Of a stretch of DNA of 64,000 nucleotides, positions 6,004-61,406 are shown piece by piece (position 1 is the first letter of the stretch; each line of letters opens with the position of its first letter). This DNA is from Candidatus Omnitrophota bacterium (lineage in GTDB: Bacteria; Omnitrophota; Gorgyraeia; Duberdicusellales; 4484-171). Made by a program: the position numbers and the translations under genes. Location: contig JBAWWL010000008.1 in the NCBI GenBank assembly GCA_037146775.1, positions 6,160 through 70,159 on the forward strand. The letters run 5' to 3'. The notes under the pieces were generated by a model that was given only the letters and a program-made list of their open reading frames with translations, did no database searches and had not been told where the DNA came from.

Positions 6004-6278
6004 TAGTTAAAAAAGTCACGCGCAAGGAGTGCGAATAATACAATATTAGTAAATACTTTCAAGAAGGTATTTCAGATTTTTTATGATGATTTAGGCATTA
6101 ACCGAAAAAATGCACTTGTCGCTCGGCATTTTTTCGGTATACCTCGACGTTATCTGAAATTCACCCCTAAATTACAAAGAAACTTAAGGGTAAATTTCAG
6201 CGTCGACCCTTCGGGCAAAAAATGTATTTAGCAAAATACATTTTTTTGGGTTAAGTATTTTCGATAAGAAGTAAAAAT
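6004..6278 (+). promoter_or_regulatory. Structured intergenic spacer inside V-ATPase operon with three perfect or near-perfect inverted repeats
   Basis: Three inverted repeats: ACCGAAAAAATGC...GCATTTTTTCGGT (13-bp stem); TCGACGTTATCTGAAATT...AATTTCAGCGTCGA; AAATGTATTT-agc-AAATACATTT. Confidence 0.5.
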
Positions 6279-22210: not shown

Positions 22211-22619
22211 GGTGCCGGAATTAAAAACTTCAGATCAGCCGCACATTGGGCTTATCCGTTATATCAAAACCCATCGTTTGACCGGAAGTGTAACAAATAA
22301 AGTAACCATTGTTTTTGATGGTTTTCCCAGGCCGGAAGTTTTGATGGATAAAACGTACCAGATTATTTTCAGTCTTGAGCGCACGGCGGACGCGGTGATT
22401 AAAGAAAGAATCGCCAAGATAAAAAATAAATCACAAGTGGTCGTGGTAAGTGATGACCGAGAAATCAGGGATTGCGTGCGCCAAGAAAAAGCAACGTCGT
22501 TACGTACCTTTGATTTTTTGGATAGGAAGAAAGAAAAACGTTCGGTAGAAGAAAAAGAGATCAGTTACCCCCTGCAGCATGAAATTACCGAGGAATTGCG
22601 CAAAATCTGGCTTAAATAA
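22170..22619 (+). CDS. NYN-domain (YacP-like) protein
   Basis: LLYIIDGFNLVH N-terminus typical of YacP/Rae1 NYN RNases. ATG at 22170 has GGAGG 8 nt upstream. The track start at 22155 is TTG. Confidence 0.6.
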   Translation: MLLYIIDGFNLVHKVPELKTSDQPHIGLIRYIKTHRLTGSVTNKVTIVFDGFPRPEVLMDKTYQIIFSLERTADAVIKERIAKIKNKSQVVVVSDDREIRDCVRQEKATSLRTFDFLDRKKEKRSVEEKEISYPLQHEITEELRKIWLK

Positions 22620-22718
22620 TGGCAAATGTCAAAATAAAAATGACAAATAATAAAGCTCAAATGACAAAACGAACAGTTTTGACATTTGAATTTTGTCATT
22701 TGAAATTTTCTGTACTCA
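22620..22718 (+). promoter_or_regulatory. TGACAAA/TTTGTCA repeat-rich operator-like region
   Basis: aaatgtcaaaa...aaatgacaaa...aaatgacaaaa...ttttgacattt...ttttgtcattt gives nested inverted and direct repeats over about 90 nt, immediately upstream of the MBL-fold gene. Confidence 0.5.
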
Positions 22719-24623: not shown

Positions 24624-24635
24624 TAATAAACAGAG

Positions 24636-24760
24636 GACAGATGACAGAAAACAGAAGACAGAGGAGATAAGGCAGATTTTTGACTTCTGACACCTATTTT
24701 CTGACTTCTGATATCTGACGTCTGACTTCTGACATCTGTTTTAATTTGGTAATCGGCCCC
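24636..24760. repeat. Inverted pair of heptanucleotide tandem arrays (RRCAGAR x5 then CTGACNT x8)
   Basis: aacagag gacagat gacagaa aacagaa gacagag ... ctgactt ctgacac ... ctgactt ctgatat ctgacgt ctgactt ctgacat. The two halves are reverse complements and can form a long imperfect hairpin just after the corA stop. Confidence 0.7.
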
Positions 24761-24873
24761 ATCGTCTTCCCGCCTGCACCCACGGTAGTGGGTTCGGCGG
24801 GATCCCGCAGAATCCGCGATAGCGGATGCATGCGGGAAGCTTAACGCTTACTGTTAGTAAGATTAAAATTATA

Positions 24874-25164
24874 ATGTGGTATGTTTATATCATCCAGAAT
24901 GATACAAACAAACGTTTTTATATAGGTTCAACCAATAATATAACCCGAAGGTTAGCCGAACATAATAGAAGCAAGAAGTGCTCTGTTACTCATTTCGGAA
25001 AATACTTTTTGATTCATCAAGAAGAATTTTCGAATATTAAAGAAGCAAGAGTGCGAGAACAGCAAATCAAATCGTATAAGGGCGGTAACGCATTCAAGAA
25101 ATTACTTCGCGAGCGCGCTGGCTTAAATATCATAAATACGGCCCCATCGTCTAGCTTGGTCTAG
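24874..25164 (+). CDS. GIY-YIG nuclease family small protein (YhbQ/UPF0213-like)
   Basis: YVYIIQNDTNKRFYIGSTNNITRRLAEHN is a GIY-YIG motif. The ORF tail overlaps the first 25 nt of the tRNA, so the true stop is uncertain. Confidence 0.65.
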   Translation: MWYVYIIQNDTNKRFYIGSTNNITRRLAEHNRSKKCSVTHFGKYFLIHQEEFSNIKEARVREQQIKSYKGGNAFKKLLRERAGLNIINTAPSSSLV

Positions 25165-25214
25165 GATGTCAGCTTCTCAAGCTGAACACACCGGTTCAAA
25201 TCCGGTTGGGGCTG
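25140..25214 (+). tRNA. tRNA-Glu (anticodon CUC)
   Basis: Manual fold. Acceptor GGCCCCA/TGGGGCT. D-stem GTCT/GGAT. Anticodon stem TCAGC/GCTGA with loop TTCTCAA. 4-nt variable loop. T-arm ACCGG-TTCAAAT-CCGGT. Discriminator G. Confidence 0.8.
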
Positions 25215-25224
25215 TTTTTATAAT

Positions 25225-25581: not shown

Positions 25582-26388
25582 ATGTTGGTAAGGATATTTA
25601 TTATTGGGGCGTTGTTGGCGGTGTTTCTGGTTACGGCTGCCGATAATGCGCCGGCTCAACAGCAGGCGCAGGGAGGGTCTCCGGCATTGGCAGAAGTCAG
25701 CCCGCCGGTTGTGCATCAGCGCGCTCTCAGTGTGCTCAAGCGTATGAGCGATACTCTTTCTCAGGCAAAGACAATCCGTTTTAGCGCCCGCAGCATAGTG
25801 CCCGTAAGAACTCCGTCAGGGATGTGGGCCAGTCTTTATGGGACTTCGCGGGTAGTCAAGGAAGGCGCCAGCAAGCTTTTTGCCCAAACGCGGGGAGATT
25901 TTTTTCCGTATGATTTCTATTTTAACGGCACGACGATAACGGCTTATTCGCCTACGAAGAATTTATATGCCGAGAGAAATGAGCCCGGCACGGTAAATAA
26001 CCTGATTGAAAATGCTTACAAAGAAGAGGGCAGATCATTTCCGTATGCTGATATACTTGTTGCCGAGCCTTACAGCGTTTTGACCGAAGGTTTGATAAAT
26101 GCCGTATACGTCGGACAGTCGGTGATTGATGGTGTTAAGACCGACCATCTGGCTTTTTCGAATAAGGGAGTCCAATGGCAGATATGGGTTGGCGTCCAAG
26201 ATCATTTGCCGCGTTTGGTGGATGCGACATATCTTGATGACGCCAGCGAGCCCAGCTATACGGTTGAGTTTTCTGACTGGAAACTTAACGAGCCTGTGGA
26301 GGCAGGGCAGTTTATTTTTAAAAATAAATCAAAGGCGGTAAAGGTCGAGTTCCGTAAGCCTGCTGCATTCTGGCCGCGGCAGTCTTGA
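25582..26388 (+). CDS. Secreted DUF2092-like (LolA-fold) protein
   Basis: Signal peptide. Pattern resembles the periplasmic DUF2092 family. Start moved to the ATG at 25582; the track start is GTG at 25576. Confidence 0.45.
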   Translation: MLVRIFIIGALLAVFLVTAADNAPAQQQAQGGSPALAEVSPPVVHQRALSVLKRMSDTLSQAKTIRFSARSIVPVRTPSGMWASLYGTSRVVKEGASKLFAQTRGDFFPYDFYFNGTTITAYSPTKNLYAERNEPGTVNNLIENAYKEEGRSFPYADILVAEPYSVLTEGLINAVYVGQSVIDGVKTDHLAFSNKGVQWQIWVGVQDHLPRLVDATYLDDASEPSYTVEFSDWKLNEPVEAGQFIFKNKSKAVKVEFRKPAAFWPRQS

Positions 26389-26426
26389 GAGAAGAAAAAG
26401 CGGAGATATTACCGGAGGAGTATGTT

Positions 26427-26942
26427 ATGAAAAAGATAAAAATAACGATTATAGCCGTTGCGGCTGTAGCAATGGTTTTCTTTGGCGCGCACGATGTGCT
26501 AGCGCGCGGTGGAGGTGGAGGGCACATGGGAGGCGGCGGCGGCGGTGGCTGGCACGGCGGAGGAGGCGGTGGCGGCGAGCACGGTGGCGGTGGCGGCGGG
26601 CACGGACAAGGCGGCCACAGGCATAATAACAATAATAATTATTACTATGGCGGCGGCGGGTGGGGTTACGGATTTGATGATGAAGCTGTAGTCAACGTGG
26701 ATTTGGATACTGATTCACGGCCGTCTACTGTTGTGGTGGAGCAGCCTACTACCGAAGTAGTCCAGCAGCCTGTACCAACAGCAGATGCGCCTGTCGGAGC
26801 TCAGGTGACAATGCTTCCTTCCGGAGCTGAGGGCAGGATTATCGGCGGCGCGCAATTTTATATAAGCGGTAATACCTGGTATAAGCCGTATTTCGGTGCA
26901 AGCGGCGTATATTATGAGGTTGTATCTCCTCCGAACACTTAG
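26427..26942 (+). CDS. Secreted Gly/His-rich low-complexity protein
   Basis: Signal peptide, then (G6-7-[HWE]H) x4, HRH, N5Y3, G4WGYG, and a structured-looking C-terminal domain. ATG at 26427 with GGAGGAG upstream. The track start at 26385 is TTG. Confidence 0.6.
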   Translation: MKKIKITIIAVAAVAMVFFGAHDVLARGGGGGHMGGGGGGGWHGGGGGGGEHGGGGGGHGQGGHRHNNNNNYYYGGGGWGYGFDDEAVVNVDLDTDSRPSTVVVEQPTTEVVQQPVPTADAPVGAQVTMLPSGAEGRIIGGAQFYISGNTWYKPYFGASGVYYEVVSPPNT

Positions 26943-39269: not shown

Positions 39270-40052
39270 ATGTTAGCTAAGCGTATTATCCCTTGCTTGG
39301 ATATTAATAAGGGCAGGGTAGTAAAAGGGGTAAATTTCGTTCAATTAAAAGACGCCGGTGATCCCATTAAAAATGCCCAGTTTTATGAACGGGAAGGCGC
39401 TGATGAGCTTGTATTTTTAGATATTACTGCCAGCTTTGAACAGCGCTCTACTACTGTTGATTTGGTACGTAAGGTCGCGCAGGTGGTATTCATGCCCTTT
39501 ACGGTAGGGGGCGGGATACGCAGTGTTGAGGACATTAGAGCGCTTTTGCGTGCCGGAGCGGATAAGGTTTCGCTTAATACCATAGCGGTAAATAACCCTC
39601 CTATTGTACGTAAAGCAAGCGGTATTTTTGGCAGTCAATGCATCGTAGTTGCTATTGATGCCAAGCGCATGCATAGCGCTAAGCGTAGGGGCAAAAGTGG
39701 AAGGCAATGGGAAGTGTATATTAATGGCGGGAGAACCCCTACTGGTTTGAATGCGTTAACGTGGGCTAAACGGGTAGAATCGTTAGGTGCGGGAGAAATA
39801 CTGCTTACAAGTATGGATTATGATGGCACGAAAGATGGATATGATATTGAGTTGACCAAAGAAATTACCGCACACGTGAGAATTCCGGTGATTGCTTCCG
39901 GAGGCGCCGGACGGATTTCTCATTTCTATGATGTATTTCATGACACAGGGGTGTCTGCGGCACTCGCCGCCTCTATCTTTCATTATCGGGAAATTCGAAT
40001 AAAGGAAATCAAAGAACAATTAAAAGCGAAAGGAGTTGAGGTGCGTACATGA
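39270..40052 (+). CDS. hisF: Imidazole glycerol phosphate synthase cyclase subunit
   Basis: RIIPCLDI...KGVNF N-terminus. (beta/alpha)8 HisF signature. 260 aa. Confidence 0.9.
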
Positions 40053-40486
40053 AGAAACCAGAGACCAGAAACCAGAGGACAGAAGTCAGAAGACGGAAGA
40101 CAGAGGTCAGAGGTCAGAAGTCAGAAGACAGAAGACAGAGGACAGAGGACAGAAGGCAGAGGGGAAAGATAATAGTTCCGAAGTTAAAATTTGACGAAAA
40201 GGGGCTTATCCCTGCAATCGTTCAAGATGTAAAAAACGGCGATGTACTTATGATCGCTTATATGAATGAAGAGTCTCTGCGTATCACCTTGAAAGAAAAA
40301 AGGACTTGTTTTTATTCTCGTTCGCGCCAAACCCTGTGGAGAAAAGGCGATACCAGCGGGCATATCCAGAAAGTGAAGGCTGTGTGCTATGATTGTGATT
40401 GCGACGCGCTTCTGATTAAAGTTGAGCAAACAGGCGTGGCGTGTCACACTGGAGAGAGCAGCTGTTTTTATAGAAAAATTATTTGA
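40049..40486 (+). CDS. hisI: Phosphoribosyl-AMP cyclohydrolase with N-terminal heptamer-repeat-encoded extension
   Basis: HisI core [15 protein letters not shown]...C-x-x-C metal site. The first ~35 codons are a 15 x 7-nt repeat array encoding [21 protein letters not shown]... The true start could be downstream and non-canonical. Confidence 0.75.
40055..40159 (+). repeat. Heptanucleotide tandem array (15 units; aaaccag/aggacag/aagtcag/aggtcag...), 105 nt in-frame
   Basis: Direct reading. Same repeat family as 24636-24760 and 60612-60671. Confidence 0.75.
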
Positions 40487-59283: not shown

Positions 59284-60543
59284 ATGCACGACTTTACGTA
59301 CAAAAACAACCATCTTTATTGCGAAGAAGTACGTGTCGAAGAGCTTGCCAAGAAATTCGGAACGCCTCTATACGTCTATAGTTACCATACTATCATTGAT
59401 CATTATCTAAAACTAAAAGCGGCATTCACCGAGCTTTGGCCATTGATCTGTTATTCTGTGAAAGCCAATTCAAACCTTTCCATATTGAAGGCGTTGGTCG
59501 ATAAAGGGGCTGGGCTGGATATTGTTTCCGGCGGCGAACTTTTTAGGGCTCTCAAAGCGGGATGCCCTCCTGAACGTATCGTGTATGCATCGGTGGGTAA
59601 AACCGATACGGAAATAGAAGAAGCTATCAAAAAAAATATTTTATTTTTTAACGTGGAGTCGGTAGCGGAGTTAGAAAATATAAATCGGATTGCCAAGAGG
59701 CTTAGAAAAAGAGCGAAGGTTGCGATACGGATTAATCCTGACGTGGAGCCGAAAACGCACAAATTTATCACTACCGGAAAACTAACTAACAAATTTGGTA
59801 TAGATTTTTCCAGTGCGTATAATATTTTTATGGTGCGCAGCAGATTTCCATACGCGCACATTTGCGGTGTACACCTTCATATTGGTTCGCAGATTACCGA
59901 AAGTGCACCCTACATTTCAGCTATTCGCAAGATGAGCCGTTTTATCCAGAAGCTGGAGGCCGGCGGTATTAGCTTGGAATATCTGAATATCGGCGGAGGC
60001 TTGGGGATTGTGTACGATAAAGAGACTCCGCAAACGGCGGATAATTTTGCCCGTAAAGTGCTGCCGTTGCTTAAAAAGACTAAACTTAAAATTATCATGG
60101 AGCCGGGCAGATTTATTGTAGGTAACGCCGGCATTCTAGTCGTAAAAGCGTTATACCTTAAATCAACACCGGTCAAAAAGTTTGTAATTGTTGATGGCGG
60201 CATGAATGATTTGATCCGGCCCGCTCTCTATGACGCATACCACAGAGTAGTTCCTCTTTCGCTAAAATCTAATACTCAGCATCCGGCAGAGAAAGTAGAT
60301 ATCGTTGGGCCGATATGCGAAAGTGGTGATTTTTTTGCCAAGGAACGGTTGCTGGCGAAGGTCAAGGAAGGCGGCTTTATGGCAGTTATGAGCGCAGGCG
60401 CGTATGGTTTTAGTATGTCCAGCAATTATAATTCACGGCCTCGGGCCATGGAAGTGCTTATCCACAAAGATAAAGTGCATATTATTCGGGATAGGGAAAC
60501 GTATGATGATCTGATAAAGAAGGAAAGGGTAATTTCTTTATGA
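59284..60543 (+). CDS. lysA: Diaminopimelate decarboxylase
   Basis: Fold-III PLP decarboxylase (YSVKAN PLP Lys, GGGLG, EPGR, CESGD). Confidence 0.85.
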   Translation: MHDFTYKNNHLYCEEVRVEELAKKFGTPLYVYSYHTIIDHYLKLKAAFTELWPLICYSVKANSNLSILKALVDKGAGLDIVSGGELFRALKAGCPPERIVYASVGKTDTEIEEAIKKNILFFNVESVAELENINRIAKRLRKRAKVAIRINPDVEPKTHKFITTGKLTNKFGIDFSSAYNIFMVRSRFPYAHICGVHLHIGSQITESAPYISAIRKMSRFIQKLEAGGISLEYLNIGGGLGIVYDKETPQTADNFARKVLPLLKKTKLKIIMEPGRFIVGNAGILVVKALYLKSTPVKKFVIVDGGMNDLIRPALYDAYHRVVPLSLKSNTQHPAEKVDIVGPICESGDFFAKERLLAKVKEGGFMAVMSAGAYGFSMSSNYNSRPRAMEVLIHKDKVHIIRDRETYDDLIKKERVISL

Positions 60544-61406
60544 GCACACGTGTTGCGTTTAAGAAAATGGTCGCCTCGGGCAACGACTTTGTTCTTTTGG
60601 AGGCCGGGAGTAAGAAGTCAGAAGTCAGAGGTCAGAGGTCAGAGGACAGAGGACAGAGGTCAGAAGGTAGAGCGTTGAGCAGTTTAGCGAAAAAAATGTG
60701 TGATAGGAAATACGGAATTGGAGCAGACGGATTATTGGTCATGGAAACGTCAAAAACCGCGGATGCAAGAATGCGCATTTTTAATGCTGACGGGTCAGAG
60801 GCCCAAATGTGCGGGAATGGCGCACGCTGCGCTGCTTTGTGGGTAAACGAGAAATTAAGAATTAAAGACAGGAGATTAAAGATAGAAACCAAGGCAGGCC
60901 TCTTAAGAGCGGAGGTCTCTGGTGAACAGGTGCGGATACAGCTAACCGACCCCAAAGATGTCAGGTTACATGTGCCTATTACGGTAAACAACCGGCCGCT
61001 TAAGGTTCATTTTATTAATACCGGCGTACCACATACAATTATTTTTGTTGCAGGTATCGAGTTGATCGATGTGGATGGCCTGGGCCGATTAATCCGTCAT
61101 CATCGTTATTTCAAACCAGCGGGAACAAATGTTGATTTTGTACAGGTATCCGGCGATGATCTTATAAGGGTACGTACGTACGAGCGTGGAGTTGAAGCGG
61201 AGACTCTTGCGTGCGGTACCGGATCGGTCGCGGCGGCAATCATGTACAGTTATCAACTCCCGGTCCGTAACCGCTACCACATAAAAGTATTGACTCAGGG
61301 CGGCGAAGTATTGAGTGTTTATTTTGAAAAAAAAGATAATGCATTTATAAATGTGTGGTTGGAGGGGAAAGCCCGGAATGTATTTGAGGGAGGTTATTAT
61401 GTTTAA
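60540..61406 (+). CDS. dapF: Diaminopimelate epimerase with 20-aa heptamer-repeat-encoded insertion
   Basis: ASGNDFVLL and NADGSEAQMCGNGARC catalytic Cys motifs. Insertion [21 protein letters not shown] lies between the first strand and the GIGADG region. Confidence 0.85.
   Translation: MSTRVAFKKMVASGNDFVLLEAGSKKSEVRGQRSEDRGQRSEGRALSSLAKKMCDRKYGIGADGLLVMETSKTADARMRIFNADGSEAQMCGNGARCAALWVNEKLRIKDRRLKIETKAGLLRAEVSGEQVRIQLTDPKDVRLHVPITVNNRPLKVHFINTGVPHTIIFVAGIELIDVDGLGRLIRHHRYFKPAGTNVDFVQVSGDDLIRVRTYERGVEAETLACGTGSVAAAIMYSYQLPVRNRYHIKVLTQGGEVLSVYFEKKDNAFINVWLEGKARNVFEGGYYV
60612..60671 (+). repeat. Heptanucleotide tandem array (about 8.5 units; aagtcag/aggtcag/aggacag), 60 nt in-frame within dapF
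   Basis: Direct reading. Same family as 24636-24760 and 40055-40159. Confidence 0.75.

Follow-up and report, generated by a model that had tools for sequence, protein, structure and literature searches.

A heptanucleotide repeat array within the hisI reading frame, and related CAGA-core arrays, in a Candidatus Omnitrophota bacterium

The hisF-hisI locus and the start of hisI

The hisF-hisI locus of a Candidatus Omnitrophota bacterium was analysed within a 64-kb stretch of DNA, the whole of which is referred to here as the window. The gene order in the window is hisF-hisI-trpE, as is also the case in relatives, and the 5' part of the hisI reading frame was found to contain a tandem array of 7-nt units. 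The following features were identified at this locus:

39270-40052, + strand: hisF, encoding the imidazole glycerol phosphate synthase cyclase subunit, 260 aa (Pfam His_biosynth, E 7e-86; aligns with Omnitrophota HisF)
40038-40043, + strand: Shine-Dalgarno-like GAGGTG, 5 nt upstream of the hisI ATG (read from the sequence)
40049-40052, + strand: ATGA, the hisI start overlapping the hisF stop, indicative of translational coupling (sequence; conserved in relatives)
40049-40486, + strand: hisI ORF, encoding phosphoribosyl-AMP cyclohydrolase, 145 aa including the repeat-encoded tail (ORF, Pfam)
40056-40160, + strand: 15 tandem heptamers of the form NNNCAGA, 105 nt or 35 codons (sequence, Tandem Repeats Finder, pattern scan)
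40169-40183, + strand: ATA ATA GTT CCG AAG (IIVPK), 3' boundary of the variable tail (homologous to I-K-(L/I)-P; DNA alignment with the relatives L091, L161, L082 and L001)
40250-40471, + strand: PRA-CH catalytic domain of HisI, aa 68-141 (Pfam PF01502, E 2.8e-34)

The deduced HisI protein was assigned to PRA-CH with a score of 117 bits, compared with a Pfam cut-off of 27, and matched 1zps with an E value of 1e-30. Residues C87, D115, C116, D117, C132, H133 and C139 were shown to be invariant in 53 sequences, and the window protein is homologous to solved HisI structures from aa 43-50 onwards.

The ATG at 40049-40051 overlaps the hisF stop codon TGA (40050-40052), and the last codons of hisF contain the hisI Shine-Dalgarno sequence. 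The ATGA overlap was observed in all 18 Omnitrophota hisF-hisI junctions tested, the distance from hisF stop to hisI ATG being -3 in 11 of the 13 Omnitrophota genome loci among the matches listed, and the sequence context GGTG(A/C)G-N5-ATGA was also identified at orthologous junctions, including those of metagenome loci. No in-frame ATG, GTG or TTG was found between the array and the conserved core of HisI. The original prediction had named the ATG at 40049 as the nearest in-frame ATG, and this codon proved to be the sole start upstream of the core. It had further weighed translation of the repeat as an N-terminal extension against initiation at a non-ATG codon near 40160. Because there is a single in-frame start, because the ATGA overlap is conserved and because the ATA codons behind the array correspond to isoleucine codons in relatives, we strongly infer that the array is translated from the coupled ATG at 40049, i.e. 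the former of these two alternatives.

The latter alternative would imply that the array is an untranslated spacer, with HisI starting at ATA 40169 or 40172 and the GAGGGG at the array end serving as the ribosome-binding site. Such a start is compatible with the location of GAGGGG 4-7 nt ahead of the two ATA codons, as well as with the shortest HisI orthologues, which start only 3-5 residues ahead of the LKFD motif. However, ATA is a very poor initiator codon, and the two ATA codons were shown to align with ordinary isoleucine codons inside the tails of relatives, whose own ATG is located only about 10-20 codons further upstream, while the coupled ATGA and its Shine-Dalgarno sequence are conserved. 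Moreover, the hisI frame is open only as far as needed, and the other two forward frames are closed 0 and 7 codons past the array. A downstream start is therefore considered highly unlikely. The repeat had also been described as occupying the hisF-hisI junction, a placement that requires correction, as the entire array falls within hisI, in a tail whose variability extends throughout the phylum. A weak promoter-like match at 40146-40173 (9/12 positions) was set aside, as a transcript originating there would be without a HisI start codon.

Tandem repeats are error-prone in MAG assemblies, and a short-read assembler may collapse or expand a repeat. The array, at 105 nt, is nevertheless shorter than typical reads and is composed of distinguishable units. 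The window HisI is 100% identical to a 145-aa Candidatus Omnitrophota MAG protein, an identical product thus being recovered from two sources and contigs (NCBI and a Logan assembly; two contigs, the longest of 153,777 bp), and related species whose genomes were assembled independently show homologous arrays at this site. An assembly artefact can, on this evidence, be dismissed for practical purposes.

CAGA-core heptamer arrays in the window

Read directly from the sequence, positions 40049-40168 comprise ATGAAGA, followed by 15 heptamers: AACCAGA, GACCAGA, AACCAGA, GGACAGA and AGTCAGA (units 1-5), AGACGGA, AGACAGA, GGTCAGA, GGTCAGA and AGTCAGA (units 6-10), and AGACAGA, AGACAGA, GGACAGA, GGACAGA and AGGCAGA (units 11-15). 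The CAGA core is intact in 14 of these 15 units, and at most two identical units are adjacent to one another. The 105-nt, 15 x 7 array of the original prediction is thus real, although its placement at 40055-40159 was shifted by one base; the translation of ORF 40049-40486 likewise matches, exactly, the Arg/Glu-rich low-complexity peptide quoted there. Tandem Repeats Finder reported a period of 7 (12.6 copies, 85% matches, score 99) as well as a higher-order period of 35 nt, corresponding to five units (90% matches, score 148).

The window was also scanned with degenerate patterns. The three-unit pattern CAGARRNCAGARRNCAGA, with one mismatch or fewer allowed, yielded 27 matches in the 64-kb window, compared with 0.00 expected from 100 dinucleotide-preserving shuffles, and a two-unit pattern yielded 21 matches, compared with 0.08 expected. 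All matches to either pattern were located within four CAGA-core arrays (24631-24662, 24676-24738, 40056-40160 and 60609-60671), with none elsewhere in the window. Those outside hisI correspond to the following features:

24631-24738, strand not assigned: non-coding copy located 8 nt past the corA stop, in which about five forward and about nine reverse CAGA-core heptamers form a hairpin
60609-60671, + strand: nine CAGA-core heptamers in frame inside dapF (60540-61406), within the part that encodes a surface loop of diaminopimelate epimerase (pattern scan, sequence)

The RNA of the array pair downstream of corA was predicted to fold at -41 kcal/mol (z -3.57) and is followed by TTTTAATTT. This hairpin probably acts as a terminator or stabiliser, although a simple terminator scan did not flag it. 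The hisI array RNA was predicted to be unstructured (z +0.28), on which grounds an mRNA hairpin or attenuator at this position was dropped from consideration. A CRISPR reading of the hisI array was also rejected, as its units abut without spacers. None of the window arrays matched an Rfam family, the sole Rfam match in the window being a tRNA-Glu (25139-25215).

Other repetitive or structured elements were noted in the window. A GC-rich double hairpin at 24768-24838 (-51.8 kcal/mol, z -4.3), for which no Rfam match was obtained, runs into the 5' end of a GIY-YIG ORF (24826-25164), and the same ORF overlaps the tRNA-Glu gene as well. Imperfect AT-rich heptamers in inverted arrangement (AATGACA, then TTTGTCA/TTTGAAA), representing a unit family that differs from the CAGA arrays, are located at 22618-22708, between a gene for an NYN-domain protein and one for a metallo-beta-lactamase-fold protein. 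At 128-190, ahead of the first long ORF, there are 2.2 copies of a 29-nt unit, each unit containing a mini-hairpin of the GGCC-GAAG-GCC type, while an ORF at 26385-26942 specifies an N-terminal hydrophobic segment followed by a long Gly/His run (GGGGGHMGGGGGGGWHGGGGGGGEHGGGGGGHGQGGH) derived from GGC-rich repeats of 21-30 nt.

Comparison of 38 units from the CAGA-core arrays revealed that variation is limited to positions 1-3 (chi-square p = 2e-10). Since CAGA is near-invariant whatever the codon phase, conservation tracks the DNA register and not the protein. In the forward orientation the unit is free of stop codons in every frame, because each T precedes C, which allows it to be tolerated within genes. 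In the AlphaFold2 models of both HisI and DapF, the repeat-encoded segments were placed outside the folded core: in DapF, for which the model is otherwise confident, the segment forms a loop with low pLDDT (aa 22-37), and in HisI it forms a lone helix (aa 7-37, pLDDT 60-79) outside a fold with high pLDDT values.

Repeat-encoded tails and loops in Omnitrophota orthologues

Omnitrophota loci anchored on hisF-hisI were retrieved, amounting to at least about 13 from a genome scan and at least about 14 from a metagenome scan, among the 80 matches listed for each. In a periodicity scan of this small, hisI-anchored sample, in which both groups of loci were fetched by the same query, 12 period-7 arrays were identified in 230 kb of Omnitrophota loci, compared with two in the 1,053 kb retrieved from other phyla. 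Consistent with this, 7 was the commonest Tandem Repeats Finder period in 291 kb of Omnitrophota loci.

Heptamer arrays directly following the hisI ATG were found in several relatives, with units GACAGAG (L161; CAGA-core family), AGACAAA (L082), AAAACCG (L085), AAGTCAC (L087; about 14 units), ACGARGG (L007) and ACGTCCC (L165; four perfect units). In the last of these genomes (GCA_030692055.1), hisI is intact at about 6169-6240, with its four ACGTCCC units behind the ATG, but is absent from the gene table of the contig. The closest relative among the matches listed, L091, displays 81% nucleotide identity to the window, 92% amino acid identity in HisF and an identical hisF loop peptide. Its alignment with the window holds up to position 40057, i.e. 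the array start, after which homology is lost, and its HisI tail measures 18 aa, compared with 45 aa in the window. This single filled/empty comparison involves a short A-rich periodic stretch in L091, and does not represent a clean empty site.

The repeat-encoded tail of the window HisI contains 12 R, 3 K, 5 E and 2 D in about 35-37 residues, with a net charge of +8. Across 120 HisI orthologues, the start of the conserved core motif varied from residue 10 to residue 52, the preceding tails being basic and of low complexity, and several of these were shown to be periodic over seven residues (KSQVTSH-like, KGQKVKR-like, DRGQRTE and KDEGRRT). The comparison with orthologues proposed in the original prediction thus revealed tails that are present but vary in sequence, length and unit, and an ancient conserved N-terminal domain of HisI was rejected because of this variation, with solved structures and the Pfam domain starting at about aa 43-68. 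As judged from the aligned sequences, the low-complexity tail occupies a permissive position, flanked by the conserved ATG and (L/I)P-x-LKFD, and changes rapidly there. The tail is most probably neutral or close to neutral, and not a means of regulation.

The tail could alternatively be a selected protein feature, such as a spacer or charged single alpha-helix, an arm for binding RNA or a partner, or a heptad tract tuning activity in the manner of NeuO. Nearly all Omnitrophota HisI proteins possess some basic tail, and residues 7-37 of the window HisI were modelled as one helix, although such predictions are unreliable for isolated stretches that are charged and of low complexity. In the case of NeuO, activity has been reported to rise with the length of the repeat tract, according to work cited in PMC13001214. 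Nevertheless, the sequence, length and unit of the HisI tail are unconserved even between relatives as close as L091 and the window, and conservation follows the 7-nt CAGA register rather than codons or amino acids, with the same units being present in non-coding DNA, so that selection for such a feature is considered unlikely.

Four CAGA-core units were identified at the same dapF site in L162 (GAAGTCA, four perfect units) and L163 (GACCAGA type), in both of which the distance from GNDF to CDRK is 66 nt, compared with 108 nt in the window. The window array is accordingly 42 nt, or six units, longer (about 9-10 units as opposed to four). Among 116 DapF orthologues, loop lengths fell into classes of 14-22 aa (peak at 21-22), 27-29 aa (peak at 29), 36-37 aa and 43 aa, with nothing in between. 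These classes are 7 aa (21 nt) apart, and thereby support the argument that repeat length is constrained to multiples of 21 nt. This argument, advanced in the original prediction, is supported at dapF but is not a strict rule at the HisI tail, where length differences to relatives amount to 81, 75 and 57 nt, i.e. multiples of 3 and not of 21, and where tail lengths across species are without 7-aa quantisation. A separate type of insert (PALPAGRQA, PCLSGRQA or LPRRQAG) was observed in the DapF proteins P0177, P0183, P0210, P0230, P0145 and P0131, and RACPCP in the HisI protein P0037; the PALPAGRQA-type insert resembles a translated GC-rich palindromic element and constitutes most of the +7-aa DapF class.

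In HisF, the loop between AIDA and WEVY was shown to be multimodal in length (6, 8, 15, 21-24, 28, 31, 35, 39 and 42 aa) and to contain, in many species, a heptamer array that preserves the frame. Some of these arrays are inverted pairs of CAGA-core units (QKSEVRGQRSE...NLLSDICHLTSE) arranged like those of the corA hairpin, such as a 93-nt pair that is in frame in the hisF loop of L164 (10001-10831) and L165 (5343-6173); HisF proteins P0254, P0255, P0271, P0328 and P0350 also carry an embedded pair of this kind. In the reverse arms of hisF arrays from two species, TGT was found exactly where an in-frame TGA would fall. Overall, all of the about 23 coding arrays read at the DNA level (eight hisI tails, about 12 hisF loops and three dapF loops; consensus assemblies) were in frame.

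An in-frame heptamer tract at the 5' end of a gene is reminiscent of neuO of E. coli K1 (5'-AAGACTC-3' repeats), in which the tract also directly follows the start codon and encodes an N-terminal extension periodic over seven residues, and whose product is full-length only when the number of units is divisible by 3 (PMC13001214). By analogy, hisI (and dapF) could represent a contingency locus, switched on or off by slippage, with multiples of three units giving the ON state and all other numbers the OFF state; such switching would give rise to auxotrophic subpopulations. The layout is shared, hisI having 15 units right after its start codon, and one-unit slips in hisI would lead to a stop within 0-7 codons past the array. 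However, neuO repeats are perfect, range from 3 to 53 in number, switch at a high rate and leave the gene OFF in about two thirds of genomes (65.6%), whereas the hisI units are imperfect (85% matches, no more than two identical neighbours), in place of the near-perfect tract expected of a switch, and the about 23 coding arrays are in frame without exception in consensus assemblies (PMC13001214 for neuO). With imperfect units, slippage should be slow. Array indels were absent between near-identical strains (L083/L084, 99.9%; L005/L094, 99.7%). Furthermore, neuO is phage-borne and capsule-modifying (PMC13001214), whereas hisI is a coupled gene of histidine biosynthesis and, like dapF, a housekeeping biosynthetic gene rather than a surface or modification gene. 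A contingency function is consequently judged to be very unlikely.

Comparison with known heptanucleotide repeats and proposed origin

Among the closest likenesses of the CAGA arrays are the heptanucleotide LSSR (Mrazek, Guo and Shah 2007, as summarised in PMC4679880 and PMC4692102) and the cyanobacterial STRR, which are likewise built from tandem 7-nt units. These families share with the CAGA family the dispersal of one unit family in arrays across a genome, lineage-specific units, inverted pairs capable of forming hairpins and an abundance greater than chance, with slippage as the proposed origin. The CAGA family displays head-to-tail 7-nt units, dispersed arrays, enrichment in a lineage and variation in copy number between related genomes, all of which are characteristic of LSSR/STRR. 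A predominantly intergenic location, which is typical of LSSR/STRR without being defining, was not observed, since two of the four window arrays are coding. LSSR/STRR families are described as mostly intergenic and under-represented in genes, whereas those two window arrays, together with many in relatives, are in frame within housekeeping enzymes. The CAGA unit also differs in combining a core of 4 nt that does not vary with 3 nt that are free to vary, and in its host phylum, the Omnitrophota.

Two further systems offer points of comparison. The TAACTGA repeats of marine Beggiatoaceae and some cyanobacteria (PMC4679880) also form genome-wide heptamer arrays, often near gene ends, and their translatability is likewise set by orientation, with occasional in-frame copies in the stop-free orientation; their forward orientation contains stops and they are almost wholly intergenic, whereas CAGA units are stop-free in all forward frames and commonly coding. 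GGGAATC and GGGGA(T/C)T arrays of Xanthomonas and Nostoc (PMC4692102) are similarly dispersed, in part as inverted pairs, and some are located less than 50 bp from stop codons on the sense strand, comparable to the CAGA array after corA. These arrays contain G-tracts, form quadruplexes and show a preference for four units (PMC4692102), whereas CAGA units are without G-tracts. The literature search returned no report linking Omnitrophota with tandem repeats in this sense. Relative to known heptamer repeats, the distinguishing aspects are the host phylum, the frequent in-frame residence in housekeeping enzymes and the unit composed of a core and a free triplet.

Taken together, the hisI array is best interpreted, with a probability of roughly 0.7, as a heptanucleotide microsatellite of the LSSR/STRR type that is translated as a non-globular tail, changes by slippage and is retained only in stop-free variants that preserve the frame. 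According to this interpretation, ribosomes that reach the end of hisF would reinitiate at the ATGA overlap and translate the array, thereby adding 35 strongly charged residues that would form a solvent-exposed, non-globular appendage. Copy number would shift by replication slippage or unequal exchange, slippage being the mechanism proposed for this class of repeat (Mrazek et al. 2007, as summarised in PMC4679880). Survivors would be restricted to variants that are in frame and without a stop codon, because hisI has no other start from which to be expressed.

Slippage accounts for changes in copy number, but not for the occurrence of one unit family at several unrelated sites, nor for the invariant 4-nt core. 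An active process would be suggested by that core and by the recurrence of inverted pairs, both within genes and behind them. As a tentative extension, which is possible but doubtful, Omnitrophota may harbour a phylum-wide system of heptamer-array elements, of which the CAGA-core family would be one member, seeded at many sites and long-lived in housekeeping genes. Such elements would cause enzyme tails and loops to evolve in length by steps of 21 nt, and the process behind them would not be passive slippage alone but an active one that recognises sequence, such as directed gene conversion, a binding factor or a small mobile hairpin element.

A role at the level of the nucleic acid itself would be distinct from the microsatellite interpretation. 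In such a scenario, CAGA, GGA or GAGG would provide a platform for a protein or for the anti-Shine-Dalgarno sequence (a CsrA-type regulator or a ribosome standby site), or a small mobile hairpin element would seed the arrays. The invariance of the 4-nt core next to a free 3-nt part is compatible with this, as are the presence of the CAGA family at unrelated sites and at orthologous sites in divergent species, the unstructured, purine-rich RNA adjoining the start codon and the ability of inverted pairs to form hairpins. Conversely, no Rfam family matched the arrays, and the quite different heptamers found at the same sites in other genomes argue against one specific recognition motif. With regard to a mobile element, inverted heptamer pairs exist, but neither terminal repeats nor target duplications were seen. 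Such a role is accordingly regarded as very improbable, and the microsatellite interpretation is preferred.

The presence of a repeat unit that is not a multiple of three inside essential biosynthetic genes means that the reading frame filters the copy numbers that survive, and the resulting, microsatellite-driven change in protein length is directly visible as the 7-aa loop classes of DapF. For the annotation of Omnitrophota genomes, long low-complexity tails and loops would represent real coding sequence rather than miscalled starts, and the heptamer arrays could act as strain markers. An excess of heptamer repeats in bacteria has long been noted without being explained; the CAGA-core arrays extend it to a further phylum and to a habitat that is mainly coding.
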